Positions 41,101 through 44,100 of a DNA stretch of 64,000 nucleotides are shown here, piece by piece. Each line of letters begins with the position of its first letter. The stretch's first letter is position 1. The position numbers are program-made. Location: NCBI RefSeq assembly GCF_056746865.1, contig NZ_CM163382.1. One strand, given 5' to 3'.

Positions 41101-44100
41101 AATAGGTGTCGATGTTGCCCGTGGCCAGGTTCACCGACGCGTGCGACGTCTCTTCCACCGCACTAAGATACGCTTTTTGCAACGTTGGCCAGCCATATTC
41201 GGTGCCGATGACATTGGCTGGATGTGCGGCAAACAAACTGTGCAATGAGCTTTGGCTCGGAATATGACCTAAACCACACTCAGCCTGCATACTGCTATTC
41301 TGATCAAACAGCGCCCAGTCTTCGTTATTTTCCCGCACTGCTCCCAGTTCGTTGGCGGTTTCATCCGCCAGCCGTGGGCGTTTAAAGATATTATTCGCTT
41401 CAATAATGCCTAACATATGTCCCCACATCCGCGCTTTGTCGGAATCAGGGCTGGTGATCACCGTAAAAATAACGTCTTTCTCATCCGAGGCGGTAAAATC
41501 ACTGCGCATTTTCGCGGTGATGTGTGTTTTCACCCCCACGCCGCCTGGCTGGGTCAGCGTCAGAGAGGCCTCTCCGTTAGCATCAGTGATCCCTTCATAG
41601 GTATGGGCGTCAACTTTGCGAACGTTACTGCCACCATCAATTTGTACCGGGTGCGTCTCCCACGCAGCGTCAGTTTGATTCTTACGGTTAACACCGTCAT
41701 CCAGATGCAGCGAAAAGTAGTAGTAAGCCAGCGGCTGATCGTTGTTCTTGCTATCGGTAATCGTCAGGCGTAAAGAAGCCTCTTCCCCCACCTTTACTTT
41801 CATCGCTTTTATCGTCGAATCATAACTGCCCGGCGTCAGTACCAGCTTCGGTTCAACATCGGGCGCTTCTTTATCGACACAGCTCACAATAAACGTCGTA
41901 TCGTCCGGTTTTTGCGCTTCGCTGCGGTTCGAAACATCCGCCGCATGGTGCTGGCCGCTCATCCCCGCCAGTGATGACCAGTAGAAATTACCCTGCATCG
42001 GCCAACCAGCCACATCCTGCACTGACGTTGGCACCACCGTCGCCAGCGCACCGAAATGACGCATTCCGGGCAAAATGTCGCAATGTTTATCCGCGCCGCT
42101 CCAGGTAAAGGTGGACCAGGTTTCATTGTGATCGTTAACCGTACCGTCTTCATTATCGACTTCCGCCGCCAGTTTTGGTCGACTAAAAGTGTAATCACGG
42201 GCCTTCAGCGTATCGGGCATATGACCCCACATTGTAGCCTGCGGGACATCCGGGCTGGTGAGGACAGTAAAGATCACTGCCGTTTCACTGGCCTGAGCAA
42301 TACCCGCGAGGCTCGCGACCAACGGCGTTTTTACACCAGGGCCGTTGGCCTGGGTGACCGTAACCGTGGCAACACCATTCGCATCGGTAGTACCACGATA
42401 TTCCGTCGCGGTGGTGGTTAATTCGGTCGTGCCCAGTTTTACCGGCGCAGTATTGTTCACCACACCCTGGCGGTTTTCAGCATCTTTGCGTTTGATAACA
42501 AAAGGAATATTCCCCACAACATTACCGACGCAATCTTTGGTGGTGACCGTTAACGTGATACTGCCGCCAACCGTCGTTTTCGCCGCACCGGAGGATTCGT
42601 CATAGCCCGCGGCGCTGACGGAAATAAGGTCACCCTGCGCGGGCGCAATCTTCAGCGTCACTTTCTGATCGGCGAGCGTCAGAACACTTTCATAGGGATA
42701 GCCCGTCGAGGTGAGTAAATATAACAGCGGCATGGTCTGTTGGGGATCAGGCTGCGCCCAGGCGACCAGCGAACGCCCGGCAAGTCCCTGAGCGCAAAAC
42801 GAGCGATCTGCGACTGGCTGTGGGTCCAGTAAGGTGTCCGGCGTCGCGGCATCCGCCCAAACTAAAGATACTGTCGGTGGCGTTTGGTTTTCCCAACGTG
42901 GGGTGGAAATGATATCGCCTTCTCTGTCTTGCGGATTGGTGACGAGCAATTTAGAGACGCTAATATCCGCGCTGAATTCACTCGGTTTAGCGGTAAACGC
43001 TACCTCATGCGTCTTTGCAGGATCCAGAAAGACACTGCCCTGGTAGACGGGTATGCTGGCACTGTCGGCGGTGGGCACGGTACCGTTAAATTCGCCGACC
43101 GTATCTGAAGAGTCTTGCCATGCAGATTCTGCCCATGACCACCCAGGCAGCATTGCGCTTATCAGCAATGCGCATAACACAAGGATTTTATTCAGGGTCA
43201 GGGACATGACAGAAACTCCACCGGTTGTTAAACGGACGCTTGTCGCATCAACATATTTTGCTTAATCCGGGATTAAGCAAAATATGCGGAAACAGCATTC
43301 CCTTGCGGGAATGCTGCTGAGTACGCGTTATTTGTGTTTGTAAATAATGTGAAGTTTGTACCCCTGTACCCCGTCGCCGTTGGTCGGGATGGTAAGAGCT
43401 TCTTTACCATCGCGCGCAGGGCCGTTAAGGTTGGTTCTGGCGTCTTCGTTGGTCGCAGGGATGACCAGATTGTTATTATCGAAGCTTGAGTTAACGATAC
43501 CACCCGAGGTGCCGAGCTGTTGGCTGCTGCCAGAAAGTACCCAACGGAAGTCATAATTGGCGGTAACGTCAGCATCGGTACCCGCATCAAACTTGCCGTT
43601 TTTGTTCTCATCCGAGTACAGTTTGGCCACGTAGGTTTTGCCAAGTTCGATTGGCGTGCTGCCGTTGATAAGGTTGATACTGGTACCATCAACAAAGATG
43701 GCGACTTTCAGGTTCTGGTTAACCACCGGCCCTGGCGCAACGTTATCGCTGTCGCTTCCGCCGCCGCTGGCAGTGGAAATGTCATAAAGATGCAGCGCAG
43801 TCCCGACGTTTGGCGTACCGGTCTGCGTGGTCGGCGTAATTTCAATACCGATATAACGACCACGGTCGTCATCGGTAAGAGTGTAACTGGTCACCTTCGT
43901 TGCCAGCTCTTTCGGATCGCCCCCCTGAGCGTCCTTGTAGCTCATCCAGCGGATAGTATCGATAGTCTTTGCGTTATCGCCCAATCCCCCAAGATCCACG
44001 TCGCCTTCGGTATCACCAATTTCCCAACTTACGGTTAATTTATCACCCGAGTAAAGACGCTTGTCCGTTTCACTGCCTGTCGGGCGAGCGCCTTTTAGAT

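Follow-up and report, generated by a model that had tools for sequence, protein, structure and literature searches.

What occupies the short gap between sinI and the giant adhesin gene that follows it in Escherichia coli, and could it influence how much of each message is made? We addressed this question in a 64,000-nt stretch of contig NZ_CM163382.1 (NCBI RefSeq assembly GCF_056746865.1), hereafter the window, whose minus strand encodes a sinH-sinI-ratA ("ila") island. The original prediction, made by reading the window, placed two adjacent perfect palindromes between sinI and a ratA-like gene. It proposed that they could be an attenuator, an RNA-processing or stability element, or a dimeric protein-binding site setting the ratio of sinH/sinI to ratA expression. 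We find that both palindromes are parts of a single conserved RNA element, bipartite and cis-acting, carried by the minus-strand transcript (Table 1). Our favoured explanation, which we consider probable, is that this element joins a leaky terminator, the first hairpin on the transcript (hp1), to a processing or stability hairpin, the second (hp2), between sinI and the adhesin gene.

Two hairpins form one conserved RNA element

The sinI-adhesin spacer spans 120 nt (43208-43327), and its length and its position on a minus-strand transcript, both stated in the original prediction, are borne out by the open reading frames (ORFs) and by the annotation of E. coli strain 118UI, which matched a 601-nt query across the spacer at 100% identity. 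Both hairpins were defined by direct reading and by a repeat search. hp1 has the coordinates and arms first described for it, with perfect 10-nt arms (43293-43302 and 43307-43316) around a 4-nt loop, and in the minus-strand RNA it gains a G·U and an A-U pair, for a total of 12 bp (43291-43318). The neighbouring palindrome is equally real but was drawn one pair too short on each side: the 33 bp reported at 43253-43285 extend to 43252-43286, with arms (43252-43268 and 43270-43286; 17+1+17 nt) that are 100% complementary. This is the longest perfect close-spaced inverted repeat of the window. The hp2 stem is extended further by an invariant G·U pair (43287·43251), a C×U mismatch (43288×43250), a C-G pair (43289-43249), and a U-A pair (43290-43248), in which the GA of a conserved GUUGA pairs with the U and C that end the U-tract region. 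In total, the helix comprises ~19-20 stacked layers (16-17 bp, the G·U, a 1×1 mismatch, and 2 bp). A 146-nt minus-strand RNA folded at -52.1 kcal/mol compared with -30.4 +/- 3.3 in shuffles (z = -6.7; 0/200 shuffles as good). Both palindromes are unique within the window, where 0 were expected, and no other copy of either palindrome or half-site was found there beyond chance.

For comparison, we fetched loci via the SinI protein, that is, independently of the spacer sequence. These included third and fourth E. coli alleles, E. albertii, two Pseudocitrobacter species, Enterobacteriaceae bacterium G50, Salmonella bongori, Salmonella enterica, Citrobacter, Leminorella, Kluyvera, and Superficieibacter. 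The resulting 14-sequence alignment of SinI-anchored loci (A1) represents seven named genera and one unclassified Enterobacteriaceae isolate. A larger alignment of 24 sequences (A2) adds ten distinct metagenomic variants found by a pattern scan; these ten were selected for the hp2 core, and statements on core conservation are therefore drawn from A1 only.

Both hairpins were present in 14/14 SinI-anchored loci. Every one of these loci has a spacer of ~110-125 nt whose minimum-energy fold holds both hairpins, and RNAalifold recovered both helices from A1. In that alignment, 98.0% of stem cells form standard pairs, and 10 of the 28 pairs (36 cells) are doubly changed. None of 500 shuffles reached the observed values, and when partner columns were slid by 1-3, pairing occurred in only 39-47%. 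Double changes rose to 12 of 28 pairs (67 cells) in A2. Both hairpins contribute to this signal: hp1 has double changes in 5/10 pairs in A1 and 6/10 in A2, with >99% of its cells pairing, while the lower stem and apex of hp2 covary through double changes in 5 pairs (A1) and 6 pairs (A2), and G·U pairs on the sense strand are numerous in hp2.

Column conservation, taken by segment across the 14 taxa, was 53% in the flank before hp1, 85% in the covarying hp1 stem, 52% in the hp1 loop, 94.9% in the U-tract plus linker UUU(U)CCG, 67% in the covarying hp2 lower stem, 98.7% in the 16-nt hp2 core UUUGCUUA/UAAGCAAA, 66% in the hp2 apex and loop, 97.1% in GUUGA, and 55% in the tail to the adhesin start codon. 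Identity of the element to the window copy was 97% in the closely related "84%" E. coli allele and 65-84% in the loci beyond. The adjoining 300 nt of the same loci fell below the element, at 54-73% for sinI and 56-67% for the adhesin gene. Within E. coli, the region occurs as two main allele classes, at >=95% and 60-80% identity, and the divergent allele (L003) retains both hairpins despite altered loops, its stem changes being compensatory or giving G·U pairs. In one metagenomic variant (L059, 1585-1845), a ~150-nt insertion resembling a repetitive extragenic palindrome or bacterial interspersed mosaic element (REP/BIME) splits hp1 and partly duplicates the hairpin, leaving hp2 untouched.

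The pattern of imperfect pairs shows which strand carries the structure. Among non-Watson-Crick stem cells in A1, we counted 42 G·U vs. 2 A·C on the sense strand, or 28 vs. 2 without the one invariant G·U pair. Counted per stem position, the figures were 10 vs. 2 (one-sided binomial ~0.02, hand calculation). Sense-strand G·U pairs would read as A·C mismatches on the opposite strand. Similarly, a covariance model built from A2 (R1) scored 75-92 bits on the sense strand vs. 20-38 bits antisense. From this G·U excess and the gap between strands, it follows that the structure is selected in the minus-strand RNA and not as a DNA operator. Compensatory changes and sense-strand G·U pairs thus support, as a class, the RNA-level options first proposed (attenuator, processing, or stability element). 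By contrast, the dimeric protein-binding DNA site is disfavoured by the 42 vs. 2 asymmetry and by a variable half-site spacing in hp2, which is 9 in 12/14 taxa and 8 or 11 in the other 2/14.

The element is also restricted to a single genomic position. It was found in 1684/5426 complete E. coli genomes at one locus per genome, the apparent second place in each being the palindrome matching itself on the other strand. The genome-wide search that the original prediction had suggested for the longer palindrome therefore returned a single locus in each of the 1684 genomes. On the window, the covariance model gave 86.1 bits (E = 2.5e-18, minus strand), its only real match there. A weak match at 48542-48595 (minus; 18 bits, E ~0.02), in the bamB-der spacer, is probably an ordinary terminator-like hairpin. 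The model found no second copy in 402 kb of related loci, including 11 kb downstream in a Salmonella-like contig (L055), so that each locus has one copy, confined to the sinI-adhesin junction. Classification as REP/BIME or another dispersed repeat was ruled out by the single copy per genome.

A pattern scan of metagenomes yielded 53 loci, and the two-hairpin variants checked by tblastn all lay between sinI-like and adhesin genes. Nine of the 53 were unrelated AT-rich palindromes without hp1, and the 7 tested showed no sinI or adhesin similarity. An exact-core scan of the GTDB species representatives, with an allele-specific and too narrow pattern, matched one contig, JAIJJM010000381.1 (L001; 3119 nt), from a metagenome-assembled genome (MAG) labelled "Collinsella sp." This contig is 99% identical to window 41562-44680; it is E. 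coli DNA that was mis-binned under Collinsella. Scanning Rfam 15 at E <= 10 returned noise only: the one overlapping match, to mir-2831, reached 17 bits (E = 7.7), far short of the gathering score of 90. The element falls under no annotated RefSeq feature, and a literature search found no paper on this spacer or on the relative expression of sinH, sinI, and ratA.

Table 1. Coordinates of the RNA element and the surrounding genes in the window
Feature	Position	Strand	Description
Whole bipartite RNA element	43246..43320	minus	hp1, U-tract and linker, hp2, GUUGA; 76-nt; alignments A1 and A2
hp1	43293..43316	minus	10-bp GC-rich stem CAGCAUUCCC/GGGAAUGCUG; GCAA tetraloop 43303-43306
U-tract and linker	43286..43292	minus	UUU 43290-43292, then CCGC 43286-43289; UUUUCCG(C/U) in other taxa
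hp2	43248..43290	minus	17-bp perfect stem; core UUUGCUUA/UAAGCAAA
GUUGA	43248..43252	minus	Directly 3' of the hp2 stem; 97.1% conserved
Adhesin ribosome-binding site and start	43205..43219	minus	GGAG 43216-43219, ATG 43205-43207; GGAG/GGTGGA motif and ATG aligned in all taxa
sinI	43328..44305	minus	SinI family autotransporter-associated protein, 325 aa; ORF, 118UI RefSeq annotation, homologues named SinI
sinH	44360..46567	minus	Intimin-like inverse autotransporter, first gene of the unit; Pfam IAT_beta and RefSeq annotation
Giant BIg21/InvE_AD repeat adhesin gene ("ratA/ratB-like")	35165..43207	minus	Single ~8 kb gene; Pfam

Probable termination and read-through on the route to the adhesin gene

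The anatomy of hp1 is that of a weak or leaky terminator, one that would act at the end of the sinI message. It sits 8-15 nt past the sinI stop by a hand count of aligned stop codons, with 11 nt from the stop (43328-43330, minus) to the hp1 stem in the window. Its stem is GC-rich, 10-12 bp long, and worth -16 to -19 kcal/mol across taxa (-17.4 kcal/mol for the window allele), and an invariant UUU(U) stands directly after it, then CC. The d'Aubenton-Carafa discriminant, which we treat as indicative only, gave +8 to +19 for UUUU alleles, ~0 for the UUU allele of the window, and -6 for Citrobacter. By this anatomy, hp1 is most likely a weak to moderate, leaky intrinsic terminator. This reading fits the co-transcription of sinH with sinI reported in a review (PMC12525524, citing Shea 2022).

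We found no switching antiterminator fold that competes with the hairpins, as both had pairing probabilities of 0.99-1.0 when 250-nt contexts of 11 taxa were folded, which makes a switching attenuator unlikely. Of the attenuator originally suggested, what stands is the terminator-like anatomy of hp1 after the sinI stop, while the alternative fold needed for a switch is lacking.

Downstream of the element, there is little space in which the adhesin gene could acquire its own start of transcription. The distance from GUUGA to the adhesin ATG is 33-48 nt in 13/14 taxa, Shine-Dalgarno sequence included. No conserved -10 was found in this interval in the 14 taxa, the best candidates matching 1-4 of 6 positions, and a promoter scanner called no spacer promoter able to serve the adhesin gene. 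The TTGA of GUUGA was rejected as a -35, being too near the ATG and without a conserved -10. Sigma-70 promoters placed after hp2, through hp2, or over the hp1 3' arm were likewise rejected, as scanning and hand inspection showed no conserved hexamers. Moreover, a promoter using the hp2 arms would transcribe half of the hairpin, which contradicts selection at the RNA level. By hand inspection, an extended -10-like TGGTATTTT in the hp1 3' arm occurs only in the Salmonella and Citrobacter sequences, and a sigma-54 -24/-12 element around TTGC was discarded for having no GG at the required spacing on either strand. A search for the operon polarity suppressor (ops) element of RfaH gave no match above chance. 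With no room for a promoter between hp2 and the ATG, the adhesin transcript passes hp1 and contains hp2, and the element would therefore affect the ratio of sinHI to adhesin transcripts. From this arrangement, we infer that it sets that ratio, as the original prediction proposed.

Our favoured explanation would then work as follows. hp1 and its U-tract would end most sinH-sinI transcripts at this point just beyond sinI, and the terminated transcripts would keep hp1 as a protective 3' hairpin. Because there is no room downstream of the element for a separate promoter, the adhesin would be expressed only from polymerases that read through hp1. On the read-through RNA, hp2 would fold into its long helix, drawing in the GA of GUUGA together with the final U and C of the U-tract region, with the invariant AU-rich core surrounding a GC step. 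It could then act as an RNase III (or RNase E-flanked) site or as a 5' stabiliser of the adhesin mRNA, which would uncouple the fates of the sinHI and adhesin messages. The efficiency of termination is predicted here from sequence, as is any part that hp2 plays in processing, stability, or protein binding.

Several points weigh against this explanation. The U-tract is short (3 U in the allele of the window, 4 U in 11/14 taxa), and a consensus terminator scanner, which needs 5 T in 8, does not call hp1. A promoter inside the 3' end of sinI is possible. hp2 has no U-tract after it, and the case for RNase III draws only on helix length, location, and the GC step. Finally, with a premature stop in the adhesin gene of this strain, the element may at present gate a pseudogene.

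Candidate roles of the second hairpin and competing explanations

hp2 does not overlap the ribosome-binding site. Its invariant double-stranded core and invariant single-stranded flanks point to recognition by some factor, and we predict that it is a recognition and processing determinant. The best-grounded candidate recogniser is RNase III, which we regard as a plausible lead. An invariant GC step lies within the AU-rich hp2 helix of about two turns, whose 19-20 layers are at the lower limit for the RNase III length of roughly two helical turns. According to one study, the sites used by RNase III in vivo are over-represented in intergenic-within-transcript regions and 5' untranslated regions and favour G-C/C-G at two positions between the staggered cuts (PMC6212723). 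RNase III sites are also found in other intra-operon spacers, e.g., ahpC-ahpF and pdhR-aceE, and such sites can stabilise or destabilise the downstream message (PMC5371410). Alternatively, once the U-rich linker has been cut, hp2 may serve as a 5' stem-loop shielding the adhesin message.

The strongest competitor, though one we regard as unlikely, is that hp2 is a regulatory RNA recognised sequence-specifically, either by a dedicated protein (e.g., a YfgJ-like zinc ribbon) or through an action on RNA polymerase like that of HK022 put. In its favour, the 16-nt core at 98.7% and the single-stranded flanks at 95-97% are nearly invariant while the hp1 stem, hp2 lower stem, and loops vary freely. 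The two-hairpin architecture also lies just upstream of a very long gene, and sinH has a Zn_ribbon_6 gene beside it in three different chromosomal settings. Against this, the apical loop is not conserved, and the U-tract after hp1 is typical of terminators rather than put-like. Leminorella (L019) is a further difficulty for the zinc ribbon, as it has the element but is missing this gene upstream of sinH. More broadly, we tentatively raise the idea that the hp2 core UUUGCUUA/UAAGCAAA and its flanks define an undescribed family of sequence-recognised cis-regulatory RNA, confined to Enterobacterales SinH/SinI-Rat islands and gating the giant adhesin. Possible routes for such a family are RNase III at a fixed site, the island-linked YfgJ-like zinc ribbon, or put-like action on polymerase.

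It is also conceivable, but in our estimate improbable, that both hairpins are tandem 3'-end structures of the sinHI mRNA, a terminator and a back-up exonuclease barrier without any adhesin role, and that the adhesin is made from a sinI-internal promoter or is largely silent. hp1 is indeed terminator-like, and stable hairpins are classical 3' stabilisers, as Newbury reportedly found in 1987 for the malE-malF REP. In addition, ratA is not mentioned where sinH and sinI are reported as co-transcribed (PMC12525524). However, this account leaves the invariance of the hp2 core, linker, and GUUGA unexplained. A transcript ended at hp1 would be without hp2, and a promoter inside sinI would still have to read through hp1.

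We consider it very improbable that hp2 is a palindromic DNA operator through which a dimeric transcription factor controls the adhesin gene. The palindrome is perfect in the window allele (35 bp), and its half-sites TTTGCTTA / TAAGCAAA are conserved at a 9-bp spacing in most taxa. Yet the asymmetries consist almost wholly of sense-strand G·U pairs, the same strand gives much the higher covariance-model scores, two taxa depart from the spacing, and there is no nearby promoter to control.

Finally, an invariant AUG/GUG in the hp1 3' arm opens a short ORF, which lies at 43246-43298 (minus) in the window and at the same position in all taxa. That it serves as a leader peptide or upstream ORF whose translation controls hp2 is the least credible of these readings, and we judged it fortuitous: although the RUG is invariant and opens 8 codons in UUUU alleles (MxFS[AV]xF[AS], ending in the hp2 GCUUAG) and 16 codons, up to the UGA of GUUGA, in UUU alleles such as that of the window, the frame differs between alleles, a -17 kcal/mol stem encloses the start, an SD-like (Shine-Dalgarno-like) GGGA stands at an unusable 0-2 nt from it, variable positions track pairing without codon periodicity, and the conserved segments hold stop triplets in all frames.

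The island and the significance of the element

The ila cluster, consisting of sinH, sinI, and ratA, has its origin in Salmonella island CS54, and deletions in it attenuated strains in mouse urinary-tract infection (PMC12928451). SinH is a colonisation and virulence factor of extraintestinal pathogenic E. coli and a vaccine candidate (PMC9937491, PMC12525524). We found the ila-type locus in 1691/5426 complete E. coli genomes with the 601-nt query used above. Strain 118UI carries, in this order, der, a zinc-ribbon gene, sinH, a gene of the SinI family, an "adhesion domain-containing protein" pseudogene, and convergent xseA.

An adhesin start does lie downstream of the spacer, as the original prediction said, but its "ratA-like gene" is only the 5' fragment of a single ~8 kb gene. 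An in-frame amber TAG at 40493-40495 (minus) interrupts this gene, giving ORFs of 904 aa (40493-43207) and 1761 aa (35165-40450), and the next ATG in the same frame comes 14 codons after the amber codon. The "ratA-like" and "ratB-like" ORFs are thus two pieces of the same adhesin gene. In 118UI, it is a single RefSeq pseudogene with an internal stop, and in strain AVS0283, which carries allele B, it is intact (8082 nt).

We also made several observations on the surrounding island. A YfgJ-like Zn_ribbon_6 gene of ~71 aa lies just upstream of sinH (window 46747-46962, minus), and it holds this position beside der in Escherichia, Salmonella, and Pseudocitrobacter. It also accompanies sinH at three other chromosomal sites, in Citrobacter, Kluyvera, and Superficieibacter (L018 348-575, L020 329-547, and L021 338-550), and from this recurrence, it appears to travel with the island. 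Compared with the window, allele B (L003) is 95% identical from ispG into sinH, ~74% across sinI and the adhesin gene, and 88% at xseA, with a breakpoint near window 44502 in the 3' part of sinH. As the drop is confined to sinI and the adhesin gene, this module was exchanged en bloc by recombination. In metagenomic loci, full-length or near-full-length SinH matches had 81-92% amino-acid identity, whereas SinI identity among those loci was only 45-46% in three and 69-91% in the closest three. The 3' end of sinI contains a perfect tandem duplication, TGTACCCC TGTACCCC, at window 43357-43372.

Functionally, the element fits a familiar class, the intra-operon partial terminator together with an intercistronic stem-loop. 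Partial intrinsic terminators occur in adhesin or fimbrial and other operons, including the hairpin after papA in the pap operon and T1 in rpsU-dnaG-rpoD. Like these, hp1 is a GC-rich hairpin with a short U-tract placed right after an abundantly needed upstream gene. In those operons, downstream genes need read-through and the hairpin protects the upstream message, as our favoured explanation would have it here. Unlike them, the element always follows its first hairpin with a second, sequence-invariant helix of 19-20 layers, and in Enterobacterales it is confined to a single gene junction.

Intercistronic stabilisers, such as REP/BIME in malE-malF and the puf operon hairpins, are likewise hairpins between cistrons and give messages in one operon differing lifetimes. 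However, REP is multi-copy with its own consensus, whereas this element is single-copy. The two-stem-loop RNAs of processive antitermination, HK022 putL/putR and the eps-associated RNA (EAR) element, also have two adjacent conserved hairpins, formed in nascent RNA before a long transcription unit. This likeness is by architecture only, and hp1 differs in carrying a terminator-like U-tract. hp2 further resembles intercistronic RNase III sites in being a long near-perfect helix in a spacer, with a G-C/C-G step in an AU-rich helix (PMC6212723, PMC5371410), and as at such sites, cleavage could stabilise or destabilise the downstream message. Compared with those sites, however, the hp2 helix is rather short for a double cut.

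Together, these results describe a strongly covarying and unannotated element, present in 1684/5426 complete E. coli genomes and in six other named genera, which is a candidate for a new curated RNA family. Its main interest lies in the factor that would read the invariant hp2 core. The element also provides a mutable target for studying the restraint of giant-adhesin expression, as it would mark where transcription of the short sinHI unit parts from that of the 8-kb adhesin gene.

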